Below, in pieces: positions 3-41,142 of a DNA stretch of 64,000 nucleotides. The notes below the pieces were generated by a model. The model saw only the letters and a list, made by a program, of their open reading frames with translations, searched no databases and had not been told where the DNA came from. Source of the DNA: a virus; IMG/VR virus record IMGVR_UViG_3300012984_000001, positions 11,695 through 75,694 of that record; one strand, 5' to 3'. A program made the position numbers and the translations under genes. Position 1 is the stretch's first letter. Every line of letters starts with the position of its first letter.

Positions 3-3000
3 AAGCAAGTTTTATCGGAAGCAAAACAATCAAATGAAAAATTAACTGATTCTGAAATAACAGATAGAGCTAAATCTTTATTCAAAGAAAAAGAAAAGTA
101 CAATTTGTTTGTTGATAGAGCCAATTCTTTTCTAGATAATTTAGACCCAAAAGATAAAGAAGTTTTAAGACAAGATAGGGCTTTAAAATCCGAACATCTA
201 CAGGAAGATAATTTAAAACGACTAAAAGTATCTTCTGCTATAAAATCAGTTGCGGAAAATAAAATTTCTCAATATAAAAATTTAAATTCTCAAATTGAGC
301 AATTAAATAGCCAAAACAAAGCTATTCCAGAAGGATTGATTCAAGAACATCAATCATTGAAAAATCAGATTATAGGATTGGGAAATGACCTTAAGAAAAA
401 TGAAGACTATATCCAAAAGAATAGACAAGATTTAGGAACTGCCCAACAAGAACTTGATTTATTTAAACGTGAATATGGAGATGCTGAAAATATATTAGGA
501 AATATTGGAGCAAGTGCAGGTGAATTAGGCTCAGGACTTCTTGGGTTTTTAGGATATACTGCGACTATGAGTGGAAATCCTATGAATATTGCACTTGGAT
601 TAGAAACTTCTAAATTATCCTCGGATATTTCTAAAGGCATTGCTGAAAATAGAGAGTTTTTAAGAAAACCCGTTGAAAGTATTGAGAGTCCGGAAGGATT
701 TGTCAACTATGCTTCTGACTTGGTTGCTAATCAGTTGCCTATATTGGCAGTTACAGCGACTGGAGCAGGTGGATTAGCTACCATAGGCGCATCTTCTACT
801 GGACAAAAATATACCGAAATGAATGATGAAGTGATGTCTGGAAAAGCCTCTTATTCTCCTTTTCAAATGGCTACTGCTCCGCTTTTATATGGTGGTGCGG
901 AAGTCATATCAGAATTACCTACCATGAATATTCTGAAAAAAGGTGGACGTGTATTTGAATCAATTGTAAAAGGAGAATCTGATTTAATAAAAAAGTCAGC
1001 ATTTGAAAATGCAAAAGAGTGGGCTAAAGATTACGGTATAGATATGTCAAAAGAAATGGCGGGAGAACAATTTACAAATTTCGCTCAGAATTTCAATGAC
1101 AAATATATTTTAGGCAAAGACGATGTAAATTTGCTTGACAACACAGGACAGGTATTCAAAGATACTTTTACTCTTACATCTATTTTAAAAGCTTCTCCTC
1201 ACGTTTTTGGTGCAATTGTAAAGCCTTTTCAAACAAATACAAGTTTGAATACTTTAGATGAAAATTCTAAGAAAATAATGGAGTTTTCCGCACAATTAGA
1301 GAACGAAAATTTGACTGATACTGAGCGTCAAGTAATCCAAAAACAAATTGATAAAGCCACTATTCAAAATTCTAAAATAATGGCTAATACTATTTCGGAT
1401 GTTGACAGCATGAATCCAGAATTATACGATGAAGTAGTCAAATTAAATGGAGAAATCGGAAAAATAAAATTCCAAGCAAAAGATATTAAAGACGGGAATT
1501 TAGAAAACAAGCAAGAACTTCTTAATGAATTAAAAGGGGAATATTCTGCATTACAGAATAAGCGTACTGACATTATTGAAGGAAAAACTACGGTTGTTGA
1601 CATATTGCCATTGCCGGAGCAAGAAAAATTAAAAAGACAAGCCTTAAATGAACTTACAAAAGAATTAAACCCTACAGGAGAAAAAGACTTGACTATCGAT
1701 AACGAGCAAATAACTGAGCGTGCAAATGAAATTTACAATAAATCAAAATCTGAAAAAATAAATGAAGTTGCTCCTGAGGTTACTACAGAAGAAGTCGAGT
1801 CAAAAACCGAAATACAAAAACCAACAAATGAAACACAAGAGGTCAAAGAGGTAGTTATTCCAAATCAAAAAACTCCAAAAGGCGTATTAGAAAATAATAA
1901 ATATACATTGAATAATGGGGAACAATATAATATAAAAATATATGATGGAATAAATGGGGAAGTAAAATCGTTTGATGATCGAAAAGATAAAGACAGACTG
2001 TCTCTTGTTGTTGCAAATGAAAAAGGTGAAAACATTGCTCACATAGCATTCTGGAAAGATATAGATGGAAAATTTTATTCTAACAACACTAATGTAAATG
2101 AAGGTTATAGAAGAAAAGGAATTGCTACTGCAGTTTATAATTATGCGGAATCTTTAGGCATAGATATTAAGCCGTCTCAGACCCAAACAAAAATGGGGGA
2201 ATCATTTTATAAAACTAGAGAAAAGAGAAAAGAAGATGCAGACTATAGTCCAGAGGATATAATAAAAGAGGAAACTTTTGATTATAAAACAGGAGAATCT
2301 GCGGTTACGCTTGAAAAAAATCAAAAAAAAGTTATAGATGAAATAGACAAAGTTGTTGATTTATCTAAGCAAGAGCAGAATAAAACCATAGAAAAAATAG
2401 ATGAATCAGCACAGGAAGAAGATATTAAGGATAATGGAGGAGTTTCAGCTGGAGTTAAGCCAGTGGATGAAGTACGAGTTACCGAGCAAGAAGATACTTC
2501 AAAAGAAAGTGTTCCAAAACCCGTTGAACCTAAACCAAGTGAAGCAAAAGTTGAAGTAGAAGAAAAAACTCTTGAGAAAAAGAAAACTTTCGTAAGAGAA
2601 CCCAGAAAAAGAACTCTTCTTGCTAGGATTAAAGAAGGTGGAAATGAGAAAGATATTACAGAAAGTTTAAATAGTCTAAATGATAGATACAATGTAAGAA
2701 ATCAAGAAAAATCCGCACAACAAGCAGTATCTTTTGTAGATGAAGTCGGAACTGTAGAAGCCATTAATGCTTTGAGAACTCCTGATGCTATAAAAGAGAC
2801 AGATACTAGAATGCTTGTGTATAATGAAGTTTTGGATAAATTGACTAGAGATATTGATGAAGCTTCTGAAAAAAATCCAGAAGATAGAAATGAATTGATT
2901 TCAATGTTTCAAGAATTATCTAATGAATTTGATAATGAAATCAGGAGGTCAGCACAAGGACTTTCAGTGATGAATTACATTTACAATAAAAATCAATCGT

Positions 3001-6000
3001 TAAAATATAATCTATCTAAATTAATTCGTGATTACAAAGCAAATGATGCCAATGGAGAAATTCCTGCAGAAGTAAAAGCAGAATTTGAAAGATTGACAAA
3101 AGAACTTAAAGAAGTTGAATCAAAAATAAAGGATGCTGAAAAAAGAGCTATAAAAGCCGAAGAGGAATTGGCTATAAAAAATATCCAAGAAGACATTAAT
3201 CGTAAAAAAGAACTAGCTTCAAGAAATAAATCAGGTCTTACAGAAACTGAACAGAAACGTAAAAAGGAACTTAAAAATAAATTCTTCGGCAGGCTTAACG
3301 ATGTAACAAGTATTGCTACAATGTTAGCCGACGGTGAATTCAGAGAATATTTAGGATTGACTTTTAAAGCGGCTAAAGGCGATTTAGCTAATTTCTCCAA
3401 ACAAATTTTAAAAGAAATTGGTGATGGAGCAAAGAAACACATGCCTAAATTATTTAGTGAGGCAGAATCTATTTACAATGATGTTTTACAAAAGTCTGAG
3501 GCTAAAAAATCTGGAGAAGTTTCTATTGGTTCCGATGGGAAAATAAAAATCCCTGCTCAATTATTTAGAAATTATGTTGAAGCCGGAGAAACTGATATTG
3601 ATGTTATTTCAAAAAAAATAAAAGAAGATATTTCGGAAGATTATCCAGATGTTGATGTTCGCGAAATTCGTGATGCATTGACAGGTTATGGCAAGCAAGT
3701 AAATCCAAATAAAGATGAAATTACAGGCAAAATGAATCGTCTAAAGGAATACGGAAGATTATTGTCTGCTTATCAAGATGTTTTAAGTAGAGAAATGCCT
3801 AAAAAATCTGGAATAATTCGTCAAAAAACTGAACAAAAGTCAAGAGAACTTCGAAGAGAAGTAAATAGGCTTGCAAAAGAATTAGGCCTTGAAACCATAA
3901 ATCTAGAAGAACAATGGGCTACAGCAATAGATAAAATAAAATCTAATTTAAAAAATCAAATTGAGGACTTAGACAAACAAATTGAAAAAGGTGAAAAAAG
4001 AAAGGTTGAACGCACTCAAACCAAGCTTGATGCCGAAGCAGAAGCCTTAAAATCAGTTCGTGATGAAAAGAAAAAAATATTAGATGATTTAGTTGGGAAA
4101 CCTGAACTGACAGAGGAACAAAAAATAGCTAGAGCAGAAAATGCATTAGAGAAATCAATCGCAAAACTACAAGAAGAAATAGATACTCAAAATATTGCAT
4201 ATCAAGAAAAACCAACTGCATTAAATTCAGCTAAACTTGAAAATTTAAGAGCGCAGAAAAAAGGACTTCTTGCTACAAAACAATTATTAAGAGAAGAAGC
4301 AGGATTGATTGAAGAAAAACGTCTTAAAACAGCTAAAACTAGGGTAAAAAAGCAAATTTCAGACCTAGAAGAAAGAATAACAAACAAGGATTTTGCTAAA
4401 AAAGAAGTAAAGCCAATTTTAGCCGATAGTGAATTGAATGAATTAAGAGCAGAACGCGAGGAACTTTACGAGCACTTTGAAAAACTTAAATACATTCAAG
4501 AACTAAAAGAAAGAAGTAAGGCGCGAAAGTTTTTAGATGCGTCTTTAGAGGCTTTAGGATTGCTTCGTGCATTAAAAGCATCTTTGGATTTAGGATTGAT
4601 AGGTATTCAGTTAAGAGGATTTACTTACTCTGAATTGTTTAGAAGCCGTAAAGAATTGGCTAAAAAGTTTTGGAAGCTTTTTGGTGCTATTGGTTCCCAA
4701 GCGAAAGCCGATAAAGCAATGAAGCAATTGGTAGGACATCCACTATTTCCATTAGCAAAAAAACTAGATATTGGGATTACCCAGCCGGACCTTAGACAAG
4801 AGGTTAGGGAAGAAATGGCTTCTGGAAATTTATTAAGAACAATATGGAATAGTCCTTTTATTTTGGCTAAAAAAGCCGGATTAGGAAATTTTGGAGATGC
4901 TAAAAAGAAATCTTTAGGAGATACCATAATTGATGAATACAAAAAACAATATAACAAGTTTGCTAAAAATAAATTTGATATTTCTGAAAAAGAAAAGTTT
5001 TCGAGAGCAGAACAATTTAAAAATGCAAATGTTTTTGAAGCTATAGAAAGAGGATTATCTGCTTATGGAAATCAATTAAGGTTTGAAGAATTTGTCCGAG
5101 GAGTTGAGAGGCTAAAAGCCGAAGGAAAAGATGAATTAAATCATCCAGAAGACTACAAAGCACTTGCAAGTTATATCAGAACTTTTTCTGGTCGTGCCAA
5201 ACCAGCAGGATTTGAAATGAATCAGAAATTGCTGAACGTGTTTTTCTTCTCATTCAAGAATGCTGTTTCTGTATTTCAACAATTGAATCCAGTGTATTAT
5301 GCTATGCAACACATGAGTTCTTCTGATTTTAAATCTGGTAAATATTTCAAACCATCCGTAGCTAATAAAATGGCTATGGCAACAATGCTTAAATCTCTAA
5401 CATCTTCTTTAGCAACTATGATGTTTATTTTAGCCGCATATAATGCATTAAAAGACGATGATGATGAAGAAATGACTGTGGAAACTGACCCAACAAGTTC
5501 AGATTTCGGAAAAATCAGAAAAGGTGATATGAGATATGACCCGTGGGGAGGATACGTGCCATTGATTACTTTATATGCCAGATTATGGGAAGAAGAAGTA
5601 AAAAAAGCCGATGGAAGCAAGTATAAATTTGGAGAACAACCTTTTGGCATCCAAAGTAGAGGAGATGCAGCAACTAAATTTTTGGTAAACAAAGAATCTC
5701 CAGGATTTCAAGCATTCCATCATTATATGACTTCTGTAGAAAAACCTAATCCAGAAACAGGCGAAATGGAAAGAGTGAACAAATTTGGAGAAAAATTATC
5801 CGAAGACGAAGCATTCTCATTATATCCTATTTTCTTAGGTTCCGTTAGAGATGCTATAAAAGAAGACCCAGATGCCGTTAAATCAATATTAACTGCTTGG
5901 TCTGTATTAGGATTAGGAAACGTTCAAAATTATAAATCCAGTGGTGGTTCTAAAAAAGAATCAGGAGGAAAAGGTTCTGGCCCGAAATTGCCTTCTCCAC

Positions 6001-6023
6001 CAAAACCTCCTACTCCAAACTAA
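3..6023 (+). CDS. Giant virion/ejection (polyvalent-type) protein, 5'-truncated by the window; internal GNAT domain
   Basis: Frame is open from base 3 (>2000 aa). Long coiled-coil and A/G-rich segments; GNAT motif A VNEGYRRKGIATAVY at ~2094-2140; C-terminal DPTSSDFGKIRKGDMRYDPWGG motif typical of large phage polyvalent proteins. Confidence 0.7.
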   Translation, partial: KQVLSEAKQSNEKLTDSEITDRAKSLFKEKEKYNLFVDRANSFLDNLDPKDKEVLRQDRALKSEHLQEDNLKRLKVSSAIKSVAENKISQYKNLNSQIEQLNSQNKAIPEGLIQEHQSLKNQIIGLGNDLKKNEDYIQKNRQDLGTAQQELDLFKREYGDAENILGNIGASAGELGSGLLGFLGYTATMSGNPMNIALGLETSKLSSDISKGIAENREFLRKPVESIESPEGFVNYASDLVANQLPILAVTATGAGGLATIGASSTGQKYTEMNDEVMSGKASYSPFQMATAPLLYGGAEVISELPTMNILKKGGRVFESIVKGESDLIKKSAFENAKEWAKDYGIDMSKEMAGEQFTNFAQNFNDKYILGKDDVNLLDNTGQVFKDTFTLTSILKASPHVFGAIVKPFQTNTSLNTLDENSKKIMEFSAQLENENLTDTERQVIQKQIDKATIQNSKIMANTISDVDSMNPELYDEVVKLNGEIGKIKFQAKDIKDGNLENKQELLNELKGEYSALQNKRTDIIEGKTTVVDILPLPEQEKLKRQALNELTKELNPTGEKDLTIDNEQITERANEIYNKSKSEKINEVAPEVTTEEVESKTEIQKPTNETQEVKEVVIPNQKTPKGVLENNKYTLNNGEQYNIKIYDGINGEVKSFDDRKDKDRLSLVVANEKGENIAHIAFWKDIDGKFYSNNTNVNEGYRRKGIATAVYNYAESLGIDIKPSQTQTKMGESFYKTREKRKEDADYSPEDIIKEETFDYKTGESAVTLEKNQKKVIDEIDKVVDLSKQEQNKTIEKIDESAQEEDIKDNGGVSAGVKPVDEVRVTEQEDTSKESVPKPVEPKPSEAKVEVEEKTLEKKKTFVREPRKRTLLARIKEGGNEKDITESLNSLNDRYNVRNQEKSAQQAVSFVDEVGTVEAINALRTPDAIKETDTRMLVYNEVLDKLTRDIDEASEKNPEDRNELISMFQELSNEFDNEIRRSAQGLSVMNYIYNKNQSLKYNLSKLIRDYKANDANGEIPAEVKAEFERLTKELKEVESKIKDAEKRAIKAEEELAIKNIQEDINRKKELASRNKSGLTETEQKRKKELKNKFFGRLNDVTSIATMLADGEFREYLGLTFKAAKGDLANFSKQILKEIGDGAKKHMPKLFSEAESIYNDVLQKSEAKKSGEVSIGSDGKIKIPAQLFRNYVEAGETDIDVISKKIKEDISEDYPDVDVREIRDALTGYGKQVNPNKDEITGKMNRLKEYGRLLSAYQDVLSREMPKKSGIIRQKTEQKSRELRREVNRLAKELGLETINLEEQWATAIDKIKSNLKNQIEDLDKQIEKGEKRKVERTQTKLDAEAEALKSVRDEKKKILDDLVGKPELTEEQKIARAENALEKSIAKLQEEIDTQNIAYQEKPTALNSAKLENLRAQKKGLLATKQLLREEAGLIEEKRLKTAKTRVKKQISDLEERITNKDFAKKEVKPILADSELNELRAEREELYEHFEKLKYIQELKERSKARKFLDASLEALGLLRALKASLDLGLIGIQLRGFTYSELFRSRKELAKKFWKLFGAIGSQAKADKAMKQLVGHPLFPLAKKLDIGITQPDLRQEVREEMASGNLLRTIWNSPFILAKKAGLGNFGDAKKKSLGDTIIDEYKKQYNKFAKNKFDISEKEKFSRAEQFKNANVFEAIERGLSAYGNQLRFEEFVRGVERLKAEGKDELNHPEDYKALASYIRTFSGRAKPAGFEMNQKLLNVFFFSFKNAVSVFQQLNPVYYAMQHMSSSDFKSGKYFKPSVANKMAMATMLKSLTSSLATMMFILAAYNALKDDDDEEMTVETDPTSSDFGKIRKGDMRYDPWGGYVPLITLYARLWEEEVKKADGSKYKFGEQPFGIQSRGDAATKFLVNKESPGFQAFHHYMTSVEKPNPETGEMERVNKFGEKLSEDEAFSLYPIFLGSVRDAIKEDPDAVKSILTAWSVLGLGNVQNYKSSGGSKKESGGKGSGPKLPSPPKPPTPN

Positions 6024-7768: not shown

Positions 7769-8854
7769 CTAAGAAACTATCATTGGAGAAAGCAAAACTC
7801 TAGTATGAGTTTCTTCTAATAAAGCAGGAGTTTTTGAGGTGTTGAAATACATTACAATATCCTCTTCCAAAGTAGCTGAAATATTTCTCAATTGATTAAT
7901 ATTCAATCCAATTCTAATTTCGTTTCCTTCGTACTCAAAATCTGTTACATTCTCTTTTGCTGTGTGTTTCAGAAAATCATTTTCATAGGATAAAATCATT
8001 TTTTCTTTAGAAATTTCCATAATCAAAGACTTGCTGTCCTTATCAGAAATAGCTGAAAATCGCTTAATACAAGCAAAAAACAATTCTTTGTTTATTTTAA
8101 GGCAAGACTCTTTTTTGATGGAGTTCAGCAATTTTCCATAGTCTGGGGAGTTTACTGATAACTGCAAAGTTTCTATCGAAATATTATCAAAATAAACACA
8201 AAAGAAATTGCTATTGTATTTCAGTGTTACGTCTGAATCGACATTGATAGTTTGGCTGATAAATTTTGCCGATTCCGTTGTAAGCAAAATCTCTACATCA
8301 TCTCCATTGTAGTCGAATTTCTTTTCATAGATAGCGTTTTTACTTATTCCAGCAATATTTAGTTTTCCTTCTTTTGATTTTACTACAACACGATTAAGAT
8401 TATCTGTCAAAGCATCTACATACGGAATTGCTTTTCTGATTCCATCAACAAAAAGTTCTGAATCTACTTTGAATGATTCCAAGTTTCCTAAATTTGGACT
8501 TTCTGGAAAAATTATCGCTTCTTCTGTAGGCAGTTTGTAATCTCCAAGTTTTGATGAAATTTCAAGTGTATTCTTTTCAAAACTAAGCGACAAATCAATA
8601 TTAGGCAAACTAGACAAAATGTTTTGCAAAAGCGATTTTGATACGCAAAAAGCGAAAGATTCAGTGCTGTCCACCTTCATGGTTATGCTTGTCCTAGTTT
8701 CTTGATTGTAGGCTGTTATTTTAAGCTCAGTTTCCTTCACTTCAATAAGTAGGTTGGTCAAAATAGGTAGTGTGGTCCTTTCTTTTACAACCGGAGAAAC
8801 TACATTCATAGATTTTAAAAACTCTATGCTGTTTACTGTTATCGTTTTTTTCAT
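7769..8854 (-). CDS. dnaN: DNA polymerase III beta sliding clamp
   Basis: 361 aa; N-terminal TTLPILTNLLIEV, PDY motif, C-terminal LLSPM; typical clamp length. Confidence 0.9.
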   Translation of the reverse strand: MKKTITVNSIEFLKSMNVVSPVVKERTTLPILTNLLIEVKETELKITAYNQETRTSITMKVDSTESFAFCVSKSLLQNILSSLPNIDLSLSFEKNTLEISSKLGDYKLPTEEAIIFPESPNLGNLESFKVDSELFVDGIRKAIPYVDALTDNLNRVVVKSKEGKLNIAGISKNAIYEKKFDYNGDDVEILLTTESAKFISQTINVDSDVTLKYNSNFFCVYFDNISIETLQLSVNSPDYGKLLNSIKKESCLKINKELFFACIKRFSAISDKDSKSLIMEISKEKMILSYENDFLKHTAKENVTDFEYEGNEIRIGLNINQLRNISATLEEDIVMYFNTSKTPALLEETHTRVLLSPMIVS

Positions 8855-21665: not shown

Positions 21666-22913
21666 TTAAATTGAATTCCATTTTTTATGCAGAGTTTCTG
21701 CGTGTTCTTGTTTGCTAACCTTATTGTAGTGGAGTAACATTTTACTGTCTTTGCTCCATCCCATAATTGTGGAAAGCACAGAGTCTTCTACTTTTCCGTA
21801 ATTTAAAGTTGCGAATGATTTTCTTCCGACATGAGAACTGATTAATAAGTATTTCTTGTAGTATCCAAACTTTTTGCGCTTAAGTTTATTATCAAACAGT
21901 TTCCCATACATCATATTATCTATTCCGGCTAATTGGCAGACTATTTTTATATTGATGTTAAATTCAGTTTTGCTGATTTTTGGTGGCAAGTTCCCGAAAT
22001 TAGAATCAAGTATGTTTTGAATTACAGAATGAACGGGTATGACTACTTTTGCTCCGGTTTTCTGTGTTTTAATTTTGATAAAACCATCTGAAATGTTCGA
22101 AGTATCTAGTTTTAGAAAATCTGACGCGCGCAATCCAGTGTATGCTGATATCAGAAAGTTTTGCTTAGTAATATCCAATTCATAGTGTTCCGAAAAGTCG
22201 TAATCGATAATTTTTTGAATTTCGGCTTCCGATAAATAAACTCCTTCTAAATCATCATCTTTATCAAAATAGATTCTTTGTGTAAACGATTTATCTACTT
22301 CGATATTGTGTTCAAGCGCGCGATTAAGGAAAAAGCGGAACCGGCCAATGTGTCTTTCGATTGTAGATACTTGGTAAAACTCAGTTTCCAGATAGTCGGC
22401 AAACGACTTTAAATCATTAATACGGATATTTCTTAGCTGTAGTTTTTCTCCGATTACTGCTTCATACTCCGAAACTATCTGCATAAACTTTTTGTACTGA
22501 TTTTGAAGCGGAATACCCATTTTCTTTTTAGCGGAAACATTCCAATTATCAGCCTCGTTTTCGAGCCACCACAATGCAAAATCACATAGATAAATAGTGT
22601 GATTTGGATTGAATAGATTTGCTTCTTCTTTTGGGCGATTAAAGCTGTTTTTGATAACTTTTTCAAGCCACGCTTTGTCGGTCAAAATGCCTTTGCAAAA
22701 ATCAGTATTGTATGCTTTAAGAATATCAGTTTTAAGTTGCTGAATAGAAATATTCACTTCTGGATTATCTATTACACTTTGATTTTCCGCATCCCATTCC
22801 GAATCATGTAACATAATATTTGTGCTACATGAAATGTCCAAACGAGAAAAACGTATTCTTACAAGGAGTTTCTTCACCTCCTTTCTGCCTTGTAAACTAT
22901 ATGTTATGTTCAT
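21666..22913 (-). CDS. Tyrosine recombinase/integrase (Bacteroidota type)
   Basis: Arm-binding and SAM-like N-terminus; catalytic R (TGLRASD), K (KTQKT), HVGR, GW, Y (LLHY). Confidence 0.9.
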   Translation of the reverse strand: MNITYSLQGRKEVKKLLVRIRFSRLDISCSTNIMLHDSEWDAENQSVIDNPEVNISIQQLKTDILKAYNTDFCKGILTDKAWLEKVIKNSFNRPKEEANLFNPNHTIYLCDFALWWLENEADNWNVSAKKKMGIPLQNQYKKFMQIVSEYEAVIGEKLQLRNIRINDLKSFADYLETEFYQVSTIERHIGRFRFFLNRALEHNIEVDKSFTQRIYFDKDDDLEGVYLSEAEIQKIIDYDFSEHYELDITKQNFLISAYTGLRASDFLKLDTSNISDGFIKIKTQKTGAKVVIPVHSVIQNILDSNFGNLPPKISKTEFNINIKIVCQLAGIDNMMYGKLFDNKLKRKKFGYYKKYLLISSHVGRKSFATLNYGKVEDSVLSTIMGWSKDSKMLLHYNKVSKQEHAETLHKKWNSI

Positions 22914-32586: not shown

Positions 32587-34155
32587 ATGAAATTAAAAGT
32601 AGGAACAGATTTTTCAGGAGTCGGAAGCTTTGACCAAGCTCTTCAAAGGATAGGGGTTGATTATGAAACAGTTTTCGCGTGCGACATGGACAAATACGCA
32701 AGACATACATATCTCCTAAACTTTGGAACTGATGCCGACATGGAACTTCTGAAAACCAAAGAAGTAAAAAAGATTGATGATATTTACTACCGCGGACTCG
32801 TGAACACAAAACTAAAACCTCCGACAGAAGAAGAATGGCAGTTTGTGAAGGATAATGAGGAGAGAGTGGCACGCTTATTCAGTTTTTACTATCCGTGGAA
32901 TGTGTACAGCAGAGTTATTCCGGAGGAAAGTTTGGATGTTTCTGTACACACATGCCCATGCCAGGCGTTTTCGCTGGCCGGCAAAAGAAAAGGAGAAGAA
33001 GACAGAAGAGGAATCCTATTTTACAATTCACACGAGTTCATAGCCAAAAACTTGCCAAAATCCTTCATATTCGAGAATGTAAAAGGACTTTTGAGTGATG
33101 ATAAAGGAAAAACTTTCGGAAGATGGATTGATTTGCTTGGTGGAAAATCAGTGAATGGACAGCCAGTTTTGATGCCTCACGTAGAATCTGTTCCGTATCA
33201 TATTTATTACAAAGTATTGAATGCAAAGGAACACGGTGTTCCTCAAAATCGTGAAAGAATTTTTATTATTGGAATCCGTGATGATGAAGATGATATTTTT
33301 AGTTTCCCAAATCCTATTCCACTAGAAAAACGTTTAAAAGATGTTTTGGAAAAACCGGAAGATTTTGAAAGTTTTGAGGTCTATAGCGAATACATGGAAA
33401 AGTATTTTTTAAGTGAAAATATGATAGAATGTTTGTTAGCAACAAACATAAAACACGAAGCAAAAGGAAACGGGTTTAAATTTGAATGTAAAAGTTTTAA
33501 TGATATTGCAAATTCAGTAACAACGAAAGCAGGGCAAAGAGGAACAGACAATTTTATTTCAGAAGAAATAATACAACTAAATGACCCTATTCATTCAAAC
33601 GATAGAGTTTATTCAGAAGAAGGAATTTCGCCAACGCTAAACACAATGCAGGGAGGCAATCGACAGCCTTTTGTTCAAGTTTCAGATGAATACAAAATAC
33701 TTGGATATACCCGAGATTCAAAAGGAAAAGTTGTTTCAAGACATGAAAAAGAGTTTGCAGGAACTATAACTACATCTTCTGGGGGTGGAGGAAGTACGGA
33801 CCAATTCATAGTAATAAATTCAAACACTAAAAAAGGTTTTGAAACTGCAGAAGAAGAAGAAGAAGATTCTATAAACTTTTCAGTTCCGACCTCAAAAACA
33901 AGACGTGGCCGAGTAGGAAAACAAGTTTCGCAGACTTTAGATACTCAATGCAATCAAGGCATTTATACGAGAAAAAGAATCCGTCGATTAACAGAAAGAG
34001 AGTGCTTCAATCTTATGGACTTCAACAAAGATATTCCAGGTGTTCCAGATTTCAAATGGGAAGTTTCTTCAACTCAGGCTTACAAACAAGCTGGTAATTC
34101 TGTAGTAGTGAAGCATTTCGTCGATTTAATAGAAAATTTAGGTCTTAAAAAGTAA
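32587..34155 (+). CDS. DNA (cytosine-5) methyltransferase
   Basis: FSGVG motif I, PCQAFS motif IV, FENV, PQNRERIF, YKQAGNS motif X. Confidence 0.95.
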   Translation: MKLKVGTDFSGVGSFDQALQRIGVDYETVFACDMDKYARHTYLLNFGTDADMELLKTKEVKKIDDIYYRGLVNTKLKPPTEEEWQFVKDNEERVARLFSFYYPWNVYSRVIPEESLDVSVHTCPCQAFSLAGKRKGEEDRRGILFYNSHEFIAKNLPKSFIFENVKGLLSDDKGKTFGRWIDLLGGKSVNGQPVLMPHVESVPYHIYYKVLNAKEHGVPQNRERIFIIGIRDDEDDIFSFPNPIPLEKRLKDVLEKPEDFESFEVYSEYMEKYFLSENMIECLLATNIKHEAKGNGFKFECKSFNDIANSVTTKAGQRGTDNFISEEIIQLNDPIHSNDRVYSEEGISPTLNTMQGGNRQPFVQVSDEYKILGYTRDSKGKVVSRHEKEFAGTITTSSGGGGSTDQFIVINSNTKKGFETAEEEEEDSINFSVPTSKTRRGRVGKQVSQTLDTQCNQGIYTRKRIRRLTERECFNLMDFNKDIPGVPDFKWEVSSTQAYKQAGNSVVVKHFVDLIENLGLKK

Positions 34156-34969: not shown

Positions 34970-35054
34970 AGATTTGTGGCTGAGCGATTGAAAGCAGTTG
35001 CGGGAAACGTGACGGGAAGTAGCTACCCCGAGGGTTCGAATCCCTCCAAATCTT
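34970..35054 (+). tRNA. Atypical class II (Ser-like) tRNA-like RNA, nominal anticodon GAA
   Basis: Acceptor AGATTTG/CAAATCT, T arm GAGGG-TTCGAAT-CCCTC, 16-nt variable arm; anticodon loop GGGAAAC lacks U33. Confidence 0.65.
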
Positions 35055-35055
35055 C

Positions 35056-35205: not shown

Positions 35206-35278
35206 TTCCACATAGCTCAGTCGGTAGAGCAAATGACTCATAATCATTAGGTCACAGGTTCAATCCCTGTTGTGGAAA
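35206..35278 (+). tRNA. tRNA with CAT anticodon (elongator Met or Ile2)
   Basis: Canonical cloverleaf TTCCACA/TGTGGAA, GCTC/GAGC, AATGA-CTCATAA-TCATT, ACAGG-TTCAATC-CCTGT; no initiator GGG/CCC; CCA not encoded. Confidence 0.92.
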
Positions 35279-35279
35279 C

Positions 35280-35577
35280 AATTAAGTTGTTAAGTTCTTT
35301 AATTTTTTGTTTGGACGGGAGTTCGACTCTCCCCGACTCCACGAATCGAGTCCGTGTAAAGTGTTCGATGGTTTGGCACACCGATATACAAAGTGCTATT
35401 TTTGGGGTCGCCTGGTTTTGACAGCAAAGCGAATTAGAAGAAATAGACTTAATTAAAAATAACTGCAAAAGTTATAAACCTTTTTGGAAACGAAGCAAAA
35501 CTTGCTGCGTAATCAACGAAATTTGTGATAGCGAAAATATCACTAAACAGCCGGAGGAGATTACTTCAAATCCGGTT
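35280..35577 (+). ncRNA. ssrA: Circularly permuted (two-piece) tmRNA
   Basis: Acceptor piece 35280-35341 (T arm GGGAG-TTCGACT-CTCCC, CGACTCC-A) precedes the 5' end GGGGTCG-CCTGGTTTTGAC at 35404; G3:U70 present; tag ORF 35465-35512 AKVINLFGNEAKLAA*. 3' end of the coding piece uncertain. Confidence 0.88.
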
Positions 35578-35606
35578 TAATTAAAAACAAAAAAACTACC
35601 AAAACT

Positions 35607-35807
35607 ATGAGTAAAACTTATTACAAATGTGAGGAATGCGGAAATAGTTTTCCGGAAGACAAATTAGTTATGACAGAAAAACTCGAACTAAACTGTTTGG
35701 AATGCATTGAAGAAGCCAAAAAGGACAAACGAATTCGAAACATGACTCTTTTGATGTGTGCTATAATTGCGGGTGCTCTTTTTTGGTTAATCTATAAATT
35801 TGTTTGA
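35607..35807 (+). CDS. Zn-ribbon membrane protein
   Basis: CxxC...CxxC plus C-terminal TM helix. Confidence 0.6.
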   Translation: MSKTYYKCEECGNSFPEDKLVMTEKLELNCLECIEEAKKDKRIRNMTLLMCAIIAGALFWLIYKFV

Positions 35808-39184: not shown

Positions 39185-39517
39185 CTATTTTCCTGTCCAA
39201 ATCAAATCTCGGTAAAAAACCAAAAGATAAGGATTGCCATTTTGGGTCATTGCAGTAGCTTTAAATTTATCAAAAATAACCTCGCTTCCTACTTCTATAG
39301 TGTACCTGTTTTTTCCACCAAATATCCTTGAAAAAAAACTTTGAGGCTTTCTAGGGCACTCAGTTCCAATAGACCTAATTATTCCTCGTTTCTGCTTCTC
39401 GTTCGCATCAACTATACCACTAATATCAATTCCTGATTTAGTTTTGTTCTCGTGGAAAATTTCTTCAACAACAACTATTTGATTAAGCGCTTGTCCTTTG
39501 AATTTATTTGGTGTCAT
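39185..39517 (-). CDS. groES: Co-chaperonin GroES-like
   Basis: ALNQIVVV..KTKSGI...GIIRSIG...VGSEVIFDKF; adjacent to groEL; start ATG at 39517. Confidence 0.85.
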   Translation of the reverse strand: MTPNKFKGQALNQIVVVEEIFHENKTKSGIDISGIVDANEKQKRGIIRSIGTECPRKPQSFFSRIFGGKNRYTIEVGSEVIFDKFKATAMTQNGNPYLLVFYRDLIWTGK

Positions 39518-41051
39518 GAGCAAATCTTTTAAGTGTAACAACGTTGTTGGTTCTAAGTAAGTTATTTGAAGCGGATGCTGCGTTTACAAGAGCTGTTTTA
39601 ACTCCTTTCGCAGTATCAAGTATTCCGGCTTCGAACATATCTACTTCTTTATAGCCTTTCACATCGTACCCCATAGGATATTTGCCTAATTCTGGCACAG
39701 AAACTCCTGCGTTTGAATGTATTTTTAAGATTGGCGCTTGTATAACTGTTTTTGTTACTTCATCTATATCTAAATCTATAGCTGATAGTAAAGCGATTCC
39801 TCCTCCGGCAACAACTCCTCCATCTTTGGAAGCGCGTACAGCGCAACAAGCATCATCCACTCTAGCTATTTTTTCTTCAACTTCACTTGGAGTTACACCT
39901 CCAACGAAAATAGTAGAAATGCCACCAGATAATTTAGAGATTCTTTCACGAAGATAGTTTTTCTCACCTTCATTTGTTTGAAGTGTAATTTGAGAGTTTA
40001 ACTCATTAATTTTAGCGGTGACTTTTGTTTTGTCGAATTCTGGATTAAGCGTGATAACCGTGTCTTTTTTACCGATTTCAATTCTGTCGCAAGTTCCAAG
40101 ATAAACTGCTTCTTTTCCTTCGTAATTTGTTCTTGAAATACCTTCCAAAAGTTCACAATCTAAAATCAATGACAAATCTCGCATTGTTTCACGATTCTTT
40201 TTTCCTTGATATGGTGGTTTTATAATTGCGAATGGATATTTGTGTTTAATGACATTTTCTAAAATCATACTAGAAATGTCGTGAGACATATCTGATATTA
40301 TAACAATAGGACGCCCGTTGTGTGCAGCATAATCCAAGAAAGGCGTGATTTCATTATGTGTTTGAAAATTAATCAGTGAACATAAAACTAATGGATTGTC
40401 GAAGATTACGGATTGAGATTCCGGAACATTCACAAATCCTTCGTTTAAATATCCGGCATCAATTGGATTTCCGGCAATGTGTTTAATGAAAGTTTCGTCT
40501 GTAAAACTACGTTTGTGAGATACTATTCCGAATTCTCCTGACTTGATAAACGCTTCTTGGACAATTTTAGCTATTTCAGAATCTCCATGAGCAGAAGTTT
40601 TAGCAATATCGAACATTAATTTTTCATTTACAGGAACCGAAATGGAATCGATATATTCAGACACTTTTGATACAGATTCTTCAATTTTGTTTTTGATTTC
40701 AATTGAAGACGTTCCTTTTTTAAGTTCATCCAATGAATATTTGAAAAATGCCTGAGTCAAAACACATACTAGGGTAGTTCCATCCCCAACCACTTCAAAT
40801 TGTTTTTTAGAGGCTTCTTTTACTATTTCGCAAGCAATATGTTCGATGCTATTTTCCCAATAAAGATTATGTAATACATCGTGACCGTCTGCAGTTATAT
40901 TAGGTAATCCTCCTGTAGTTTCGAAAAGGACATTTTGTCCACGATACCCCATTGTGCTCGAAACTATGTCACAACACTTGTTTATCCCGTCAAGTAATTG
41001 TGATTTTGCATCTTCTCCACTGACTAGATGCCTTAAAATTGTGTTACTCAT
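39504..41051 (-). CDS. groEL: Chaperonin GroEL-like
   Basis: STMGYRGQNV, ITADG, GDGTT, ERISKLSGG, GVVAGGG, AGILD; start ATG at 41051. Confidence 0.95.
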   Translation of the reverse strand: MSNTILRHLVSGEDAKSQLLDGINKCCDIVSSTMGYRGQNVLFETTGGLPNITADGHDVLHNLYWENSIEHIACEIVKEASKKQFEVVGDGTTLVCVLTQAFFKYSLDELKKGTSSIEIKNKIEESVSKVSEYIDSISVPVNEKLMFDIAKTSAHGDSEIAKIVQEAFIKSGEFGIVSHKRSFTDETFIKHIAGNPIDAGYLNEGFVNVPESQSVIFDNPLVLCSLINFQTHNEITPFLDYAAHNGRPIVIISDMSHDISSMILENVIKHKYPFAIIKPPYQGKKNRETMRDLSLILDCELLEGISRTNYEGKEAVYLGTCDRIEIGKKDTVITLNPEFDKTKVTAKINELNSQITLQTNEGEKNYLRERISKLSGGISTIFVGGVTPSEVEEKIARVDDACCAVRASKDGGVVAGGGIALLSAIDLDIDEVTKTVIQAPILKIHSNAGVSVPELGKYPMGYDVKGYKEVDMFEAGILDTAKGVKTALVNAASASNNLLRTNNVVTLKRFAHDTK

Positions 41052-41103
41052 ATAATTAAATTTAATTTGATTAATAGAAAACAAAAGTACTAATTTTAAA
41101 AAA

Positions 41104-41142
41104 GACAACAAACATTTCTTGTTGTTTTAATTTATATCTTTG
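41104..41142 (+). promoter_or_regulatory. Class B (late) promoter; divergent groEL promoter adjacent
   Basis: GACAACAAACATTT ... TATCTTTG; on the - strand TACTTTTG at 41082-41089. Confidence 0.6.

Follow-up and report, generated by a model that had tools for sequence, protein, structure and literature searches.

tmRNA is the main bacterial ribosome-rescue system, and its permuted genes have been regarded as a hallmark of three bacterial lineages and some mitochondria, as well as of the phages that infect those bacteria. The locus analysed here raises the question of how a gene of this kind comes to be carried by a phage of the Bacteroidota, whether it could work and where its permuted order arose. 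It lies at positions 35280-35577 of a stretch of 64,000 nucleotides (the window), which comprises bases 11695-75694 of a 75,694-bp IMG/VR record (IMGVR_UViG_3300012984_000001) that has direct terminal repeats and is rated complete. On sequence evidence we hold it highly probable that the locus is a working two-piece tmRNA gene supplied to a Flavobacteriaceae-type host, and that it belongs to a phage-borne lineage which has probably made its own permutation of the Bacteroidota one-piece tmRNA and lost all four pseudoknots.

The phage and its tmRNA gene

The phage encodes a large terminase, a portal protein and a virion protein, along with the following genes:

7769-8854, minus strand: DNA polymerase III beta clamp
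21666-22913, minus strand: tyrosine integrase
32587-34155, plus strand: C5 cytosine methylase
39504-41111, minus strand: GroEL-like chaperonin

Its description as a Bacteroidota phage, put forward in an earlier note on this DNA, is well supported because of the terminase and chaperonin matches, from which we infer the host itself. Among 50,697 phage genomes the terminase matches 87 records, namely 86 Flavobacteriaceae phages (with Flavobacterium as host in 68 cases, Cellulophaga in 15, Tenacibaculum in 2 and Maribacter in 1) and one uncultured Caudoviricetes; the best match has 57% identity over the full length. The chaperonin has its best matches in Flavobacterium phages and also matches Cellulophaga phages, while many other matching phages infect, for example, Vibrio. 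The Bacteroidota promoter box TAnnTTTG is not enriched over the window (118 found, 99 +/- 10 expected) and is thus uninformative on the host of the phage. A megablast search with 12 kb around the gene gave zero matches to cultured phages, and the window has no Rfam match to a glutamine riboswitch. The tyrosine integrase suggests that the lifestyle is possibly temperate. An ORF of 1972 amino acids (105-6023), which runs in from the start of the window, has a sub-threshold match to GNAT acetyltransferases (19.9 vs 20.7 bits), and its product may be a large virion or injected protein.

The tmRNA gene forms part of a small cluster of RNA genes, with these features:

34970-35055, plus strand: tRNA-Phe (GAA), called by ARAGORN; first gene of the cluster
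35206-35279, plus strand: tRNA-Met (CAT), called by ARAGORN and by Rfam RF00005 (73.6 bits); CCA not encoded
35280-35341, plus strand: acceptor piece, in which 35280-35312 are the 3'-side strands of helix 2
35342-35403, plus strand: intervening segment of 62 nt, predicted to be removed from the precursor
35404-35422, plus strand: 5' module of the coding piece, made up of the acceptor 5' strand GGGGTCG and the D-arm analogue CCTGGTTTTGAC
35423-35454, plus strand: 5'-side strands of helix 2 (proximal, middle and distal), pairing with 35280-35312
35459-35475, plus strand: resume-codon hairpin ATAACT/AGTTAT, 6 bp, with a 5-nt loop GCAAA that holds GCA
35465-35512, plus strand: tag frame, with resume codon GCA, peptide AKVINLFGNEAKLAA and stop codon TAA at 35510-35512
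35490-35510, plus strand: hairpin inside the 3' part of the tag frame, helix-5-like
35525-35543, plus strand: post-stop hairpin (GTGATA, loop GCGAAAA, TATCAC)
35549-35577, plus strand: last hairpin, then TTTAATT; probable 3' end of the coding piece

The 3' module at 35313-35341 consists of GGAC, a T-arm (GGGAG/CTCCC, with the loop TTCGACT), the acceptor 3' strand CGACTCC and the discriminator A. Paired with GGGGTCG, the latter strand forms a 7-bp acceptor stem with G3:U70 and discriminator A, and both a T-arm with a TTCGA-type loop and the D-arm analogue GGNTTNGAC are present in the window gene. The four stretches that follow GAC (35423-35454) are complementary to 35280-35312, and helix 2 is separated from the resume codon GCA (35465) by 10 nt (35455-35464). 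All of the sequence elements that the earlier note had listed were found in their places on re-reading the sequence. The acceptor strand is followed by ACGA, so that CCA is not encoded and would have to be added post-transcriptionally. The 3' end of tRNA-Met (35279) abuts the first base of the acceptor piece, and tRNA 3' processing would therefore make the 5' end of that piece; a tRNA 3' end occupies the equivalent place in 7 of 34 relatives. The predicted mature RNA comprises pieces of about 65 and about 175 nt, compared to about 395 nt for a host-type tmRNA. A simple terminator scan called no terminator after the tmRNA gene, the last hairpin at 35549-35577 being left uncalled.

Several smaller observations concern the surroundings of the two pieces. 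The spacer (35342-35403) is partly conserved with those of three relatives (L008, L045 and L064), which have CCGTGTA, TTGGTTT and CCGATATACAAA in the same order, even though this segment is expected to be discarded. A TAnnTTTG box (TATTTTTG) at 35397-35404 has its last base on G1 of the coding piece, and a sigma-70-like site (TTGGCA-18-TATTTT) lies inside the spacer at 35373-35402; either could be a chance occurrence in AT-rich DNA. Right after the tmRNA gene, an ORF of 66 amino acids (35607-35807) without a PHROG match encodes two CxxC pairs and is zinc-ribbon-like.

The permuted order proposed in the earlier note is borne out by two standard tools. ARAGORN places a permuted tmRNA (tmRNA*) at 35249-35603 and reads its tag as AKVINLFGNEAKLAA, and the Rfam model RF04321 (tmRNA_permuted) matches 35293-35512 over its full length (1-213) with 63.7 bits (E 5.7e-10), against a gathering cut-off of 47 bits; the gene is thus not hidden from routine annotation. 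A 9.3-kb Logan contig covers the region with zero differences; it comes from the probable source run, which is a soil metagenome. Two further runs yielded short contigs covering 35370-35517 and 35383-35650, that is, from the spacer into the coding part, and none of the runs listed as containing the stretch is recorded as RNA. An assembly artefact is ruled out by the 9.3-kb contig together with the same gene order in dozens of unrelated contigs.

The gene is also unusually small. The distance between GAC and the resume codon is 42 nt in the window, 32 of them in helix-2 strands, and about 75 nt in the Flavobacteriaceae tmRNA, where pk1 is included. Because helix 2 ends 10 nt before the resume codon, no room is left for pk1, and in computed folding neither pk1 nor pk2-4 was found, with only simple hairpins after the tag; the earlier description of a gene lacking pk1 and the pk2-4 ring therefore holds. 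On the window gene, RF00023, the standard model with the pseudoknot region included, reaches 5.6 bits. The lack of pseudoknots in the predicted RNA is a result of computation, and these methods could miss one that is small or unusual. pk1 is important to E. coli tmRNA. In the window its usual place is taken by the distal part of helix 2, which may stand in for it.

Relatives in other phages and selection on structure

A search for the permuted-order pattern with a spacer of 40-70 nt found 64 IMG/VR contigs, and 49 more have the same pattern with a spacer of 71-100 nt. The permuted IMG/VR loci split into two groups. Group A, which resembles the known alpha- and betaproteobacterial kinds, has GGTTTCGAC, an encoded CCA and tags such as ANDAQFALAA. 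Group B includes the window and comprises 92 loci (61 unique) on about 90 IMG/VR contigs; its members have GG(T/A)TTTGAC, a CCA that is usually not encoded and long tags related to that of the window (GKVINLFSAEQVRLVA and DKVINLFNEPLRMAS, both found by ARAGORN, GKVIRLNNEPLRMSA and others). Group-B genes are also carried by two named phages, Maribacter phage Panino (PP540027.1) and Chryseobacterium phage MA9V-3 (PV245944.1), and by crAss-like Suoliviridae from human faeces (cr125_1, cr10_1, cr114_1, cr50_1 and cr60_1, the last without the 5'-module motif used in the search). crAss-like phages are among the most abundant viruses of the human gut. When blastn was run with the tmRNA alone against cultured phages, the 3' module of Panino was the sole match.

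The genes of Panino, MA9V-3 and the crAss-like phages resemble the window gene in their permuted order, in tRNA-like modules of the same family and in long tags (GKVMNVSFAPTVRQFA, GNFYVTDYTRIAA and others). They differ from it in the sequence of the tag and in the resume codon, which is GCA in the window and GGC or GAC in these phages. The spacers range from 39 to 214 nt in the cultured and crAss-like relatives (99-214 nt in the crAss-like phages), with 62 nt in the window. The permuted tmRNA of MA9V-3 (L111) has GGTTTCGAC instead of GGTTTTGAC, yet a group-B-like tag (GNVIDINKYVAKLEVAA), and this mix of characters makes the U/C character imperfect as a definition of the family. In GenBank the genes of Panino, MA9V-3 and the crAss-like phages are labelled only 'tmRNA SsrA', with the permutation unremarked, and the Panino paper likewise calls its gene a tmRNA and leaves the permutation unmentioned. 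The rarity implied in the earlier note was therefore overstated, since the gene belongs to a large family whose members GenBank phage records already list under the plain label 'tmRNA'.

Selection on the structure was assessed in 34 group-B genes, which were aligned with MAFFT and folded with RNAalifold. The T-arm and the split acceptor stem are recovered. At pairs 5-7 of the acceptor stem pairing is kept through 3, 13 and 19 double-sided changes among the 34 sequences, pairs of the T-arm keep theirs through 14 and 9 such changes, and G3:U70 is invariant (34/34). With a subset of 10 sequences as with all 34, the structures found by RNAalifold were limited to the T-arm and acceptor stem together with the proximal helix 2 and a portion of the tag hairpin, and on the coding halves it gave no consensus. 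Of the covariation among homologues that had been named as a check on the gene, that of the acceptor stem is present, as is covariation in the T-arm; the middle and distal helix 2 yielded neither a family-wide column-by-column alignment nor column-wise covariation.

Because the middle and distal helix 2 could not be aligned, pairing between pieces of the same phage was compared with that of mixed pieces, and columns were counted from anchored positions. Acceptor and coding pieces of the same phage pair with a mean of -14.7 kcal/mol, as opposed to -10.7 kcal/mol for mixed pieces. The same-phage mean was reached in 0 of 10,000 permutations, and this outcome persists once the conserved proximal helix is removed. 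The same-phage gain amounts to -4.07 kcal/mol against GC-matched non-partners (p 2.6e-7) and still to -2.29 kcal/mol without the proximal helix (p 3.4e-5), and reversed-sequence controls agree with partner-specific pairing. The proximal helix is 72% paired in register, compared to 39-45% when slid outward and 66% when slid by one column in the other direction, and AT, TA, GC and CG pairs all occur at three of its positions. When folds were constrained only in the tRNA-like domain, the same three-part helix 2 appeared in nearly every member. Relative to mononucleotide shuffles, the duplex energy of helix 2 is not significant for most members (z = -1.3 for the window, which is AT-rich), so that the support for this helix comes from partner specificity and not from duplex energy. 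On these grounds the earlier proposal that helix 2 joins the two pieces stands.

The hairpins of the coding piece recur in the relatives as well. The hairpin in the tag frame is 70% paired in register vs about 31% when slid, with GC, AU, UA and CG pairs and a conserved loop (UUAGA or UAAGA), and the post-stop hairpin is 67% paired vs 42-61% when slid; both covary. The resume-codon hairpin is found in about half of the family, where it is 58% paired vs 27-38% when slid and shows compensatory changes such as ACAACT/AGTTGT; it may explain the conserved start of the tag (x-K-V-I/V). The tag frame is open in all 34 aligned relatives, about two thirds of which have it called by ARAGORN while the others were read by eye from the alignment, and the disrupted frames that would have spoken against the gene were not encountered in them. 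In these relatives the tag region has a conserved A-rich stretch upstream, a similar length, a hydrophobic end and a stop codon.

Origin of the permutation

Permuted tmRNAs are described from Alphaproteobacteria, a betaproteobacterial group and some Cyanobacteria (Keiler, Shapiro and Williams 2000; Sharkady and Williams 2004, both as cited in PMC9004378). These lineages are represented in Rfam by the models RF01849, RF01850 and RF01851 and jointly by the merged model RF04321. Their genes share with the window the order of acceptor piece, spacer and coding piece, a tRNA-like domain formed by two RNAs, helix 2 and a tag within the coding piece. The window gene differs from them in that the lineage cut-offs are not reached (5.9 vs 50 bits for the alpha, 34.9 vs 84 for the beta and 27.1 vs 70 for the cyano model, with only the tRNA-like core aligning), in its Bacteroidota tRNA-like characters, in the absence of an encoded CCA and in that pk1 was not found. 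The alpha, beta and cyano permuted tmRNAs retain pk1, and the Rfam templates for these permuted lineages contain pseudoknot stems (PMC11915505). Moreover, the form seen in the window was encountered only in phages, and not as a tmRNA of the host cells.

The tRNA-like domain rather resembles that of the one-piece tmRNA of the Flavobacteriaceae (RF00023), which has near-identical tRNA-like modules and shares the LAA end of the tag, but which is about 395 nt long, has the standard order and contains pseudoknots, where the window gene is permuted with none found. The tRNA-like domain of the window has an identity of 0.82 on average (0.92 at most) to that of Flavobacteriaceae one-piece tmRNAs, and of 0.69 on average (0.75 at most) to that of group A, whose phage-borne genes served as the alpha/beta comparison set. 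Four characters are common to group B and the Flavobacteriaceae and absent from group A: a 6-nt rather than a 7-nt spacer in GGGG-N-GG, AGC after GAC, GTTT before GGAC, and a CCA that is not encoded. In addition, a TAnnTTTG sequence (the Bacteroidota -7 box) lies 41 to 48 nt upstream of GGAC (-41 to -48) in 11 of 34 relatives, where about 0.25 sites would be expected by chance; 7 other relatives have the tRNA 3' end at this place.

The statement in the earlier note that Bacteroidota hosts use a one-piece tmRNA agrees with the genomes surveyed. A standard tmRNA (RF00023 above its cut-off) was found in 39 of the 41 genomes of the Flavobacteriaceae sample, and the seed MAG was the sole one of 151 genomes of the phylum in which RF04321 passed. 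Across 185,579 species genomes the group-B pattern occurs on a single contig, a 5.8-kb contig of an Aequorivita MAG in which the standard tmRNA was not found and which may be incomplete. In a tmRNA database, 24,380 standard and 48 permuted genes are recorded from 29,415 Bacteroidota genomes (PMC11915505, supplementary table 2). Since the hosts use the one-piece form, the permuted form is the phage's own. The Flavobacteriaceae-type signature and the failure of the alpha, beta and cyano models make it likely that a Bacteroidota-type tmRNA was permuted separately within phages, as the earlier note had supposed.

The main rival to this separate permutation is import followed by remodelling, in which the gene would descend from one of the known permuted lineages (alpha, beta, cyano, or their phages), would have moved into Bacteroidota phages, and would there have had its tRNA-like domain remodelled for the SmpB, AlaRS and RNase P of the host. 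Two-piece tmRNAs of the alpha, beta and cyano types are common in aquatic phages (PMC9004378, and group A here), and one inter-class move has been proposed for phage Melnitz. RF04321, although built solely from those three lineages, detects the window gene. Host-specific selection bears most heavily on the tRNA-like domain, whose host-like sequence could reflect adaptation to SmpB, AlaRS and RNase P, or recombination, instead of descent. We nevertheless regard import as unlikely. The lineage-specific models fail beyond the tRNA-like core, and the four characters, which are mutually independent, fit the Flavobacteriaceae one-piece tmRNA and not the alpha/beta-like phage genes; one of them is the proximal helix-2 sequence, for which a role tied to the host is not obvious. 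Furthermore, phages with a one-piece tmRNA and the same modules do exist. One-piece tmRNA genes of 360-394 nt with similar tRNA-like modules are found in the Cellulophaga phages phi38:1 and Calle and in an 89-kb viral contig (L002, positions 3597-3990, tag EDALAFVDGEFALAA), in which the 3' module is identical to that of the window over 29 nt and the 5' module differs at two positions. The one-piece tmRNA of this contig may be akin to the form that underwent permutation, or may just reflect the same host genus.

Two other readings deny the locus a role in tagging. The tRNA-like domain could act as a decoy that titrates host SmpB or blocks host trans-translation, with the 'tag' left untranslated, much as the tmRNA of mycobacteriophage DS6A, which has a tRNA-like domain only, inhibits E. 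coli tmRNA (PMC4131195; PMC11915505); loss of pk1 could also impair function. This is made very improbable by the tag frame that stays open in every aligned relative, with its A-rich stretch, length, hydrophobic end and stop codon all kept and with conserved hairpins around it. Still less credible is a dead remnant, a tmRNA 3' fragment that served as an attachment site and came to lie beside a 5' fragment captured from a host tmRNA. A copy of the 3' end of the gene is indeed carried by phages that use tmRNA genes for integration, this phage has a tyrosine integrase, and the 3' module is nearly identical to that of a host-family tmRNA (L085). Yet the integrase lies 12 kb away, helix 2 is partner-specific, and no host 5' fragment is nearly as short as the coding piece, which is conserved in this short form; the attP-remnant reading was rejected on the covariation of the acceptor-stem halves across 34 phages, which contradicts it.

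Proposed action in infection and relation to known systems

For a working two-piece tmRNA of the phage's own, the following course would apply. The gene would be co-transcribed with tRNA-Phe and tRNA-Met, the 5' end of the acceptor piece would be freed at 35280 by tRNA 3' processing, and RNase P would cut before G35404. The 62-nt spacer would be trimmed back to A35341, where the CCA-adding enzyme of the host would add CCA. The resulting acceptor piece (about 65 nt) and coding piece (about 175 nt) would be held together by the 7-bp acceptor stem and the three-part helix 2, charged with alanine by host AlaRS through G3:U70, and delivered to stalled ribosomes by host SmpB and EF-Tu, after which translation would resume at GCA (35465) and append AKVINLFGNEAKLAA. 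The earlier note had reported no smpB in the window, and this extends to the whole 75.7-kb phage genome, where neither SmpB nor a CCA-adding enzyme was found.

The LAA end of the tag matches that of the host tag GENNYALAA, whereas the tags of many relatives end in RAVA, RMSA or RATA, and the fate of tagged proteins may therefore differ between phages. The benefit to the phage might be that rescue is sustained while host RNA is shut off, or that the choice of proteins to be degraded is changed. Resistance to host RNases, or retagging of proteins for a different turnover, as suggested in the earlier note, is speculative. On balance, and with some reserve, we favour an extension of this reading to the whole family, according to which Bacteroidota phages, from soil and marine flavobacterial podophages to gut crAss-like phages, would share a tmRNA lineage of their own that arose by a separate permutation of the one-piece tmRNA, is free of pseudoknots and in a large subgroup holds the resume codon in a hairpin loop. 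This lineage would add one more independent origin to those of split tmRNA, would have the smallest architecture of any tag-encoding tmRNA, and would serve the phage to keep up or redirect ribosome rescue during infection.

Phage-borne two-piece tmRNAs as such were already known. The list of permuted tmRNAs in the earlier note omitted phages, and the study of phage Melnitz had counted 53 two-piece genes among 133 unique phage tmRNAs (PMC9004378). Its supplementary table flags Cellulophaga phage phi4:1 as permuted, and a tmRNA survey of 2014 listed phage tmRNAs only for mycobacteriophages and Bacillus phage G. The two-piece genes of marine myophages (OM43 phage Melnitz, pelagimyophages and cyanophages; PMC9004378) are, like that of the window, complete permuted ssrA genes without smpB and often lie beside tRNA genes; they resemble the permuted tmRNA of their (former) hosts, whereas the hosts that we infer for the window have a one-piece tmRNA. 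A full-text search, with incomplete coverage of the literature, found no paper that discusses permuted or pseudoknot-free tmRNA in Bacteroidota or crAss-like phages. What is new is the recognition of a lineage that is restricted to phages, of Bacteroidota type and free of pseudoknots.

If this is true, the existence of a phage-only permuted lineage in a phylum with one-piece tmRNA would mean that permutation arose again, on a mobile element, and a tag-encoding tmRNA without pk1-pk4 would set a lower limit on what trans-translation needs and provide a compact model for structural work. Since the family includes cultured phages with a cultured host (Maribacter for Panino, Chryseobacterium for MA9V-3), it can be tested directly what leads phages to carry a rescue RNA of their own.

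There is also a consequence for annotation, in that pipelines label such genes plain 'tmRNA' and put false ORFs on the opposite strand. In the window an ORF of 73 amino acids (35247-35468, minus strand) crosses the tmRNA in antisense, and a similar 'hypothetical protein' is annotated under the tmRNA in the GenBank record of Panino (L067, 3055-3204); both are probably false gene calls.
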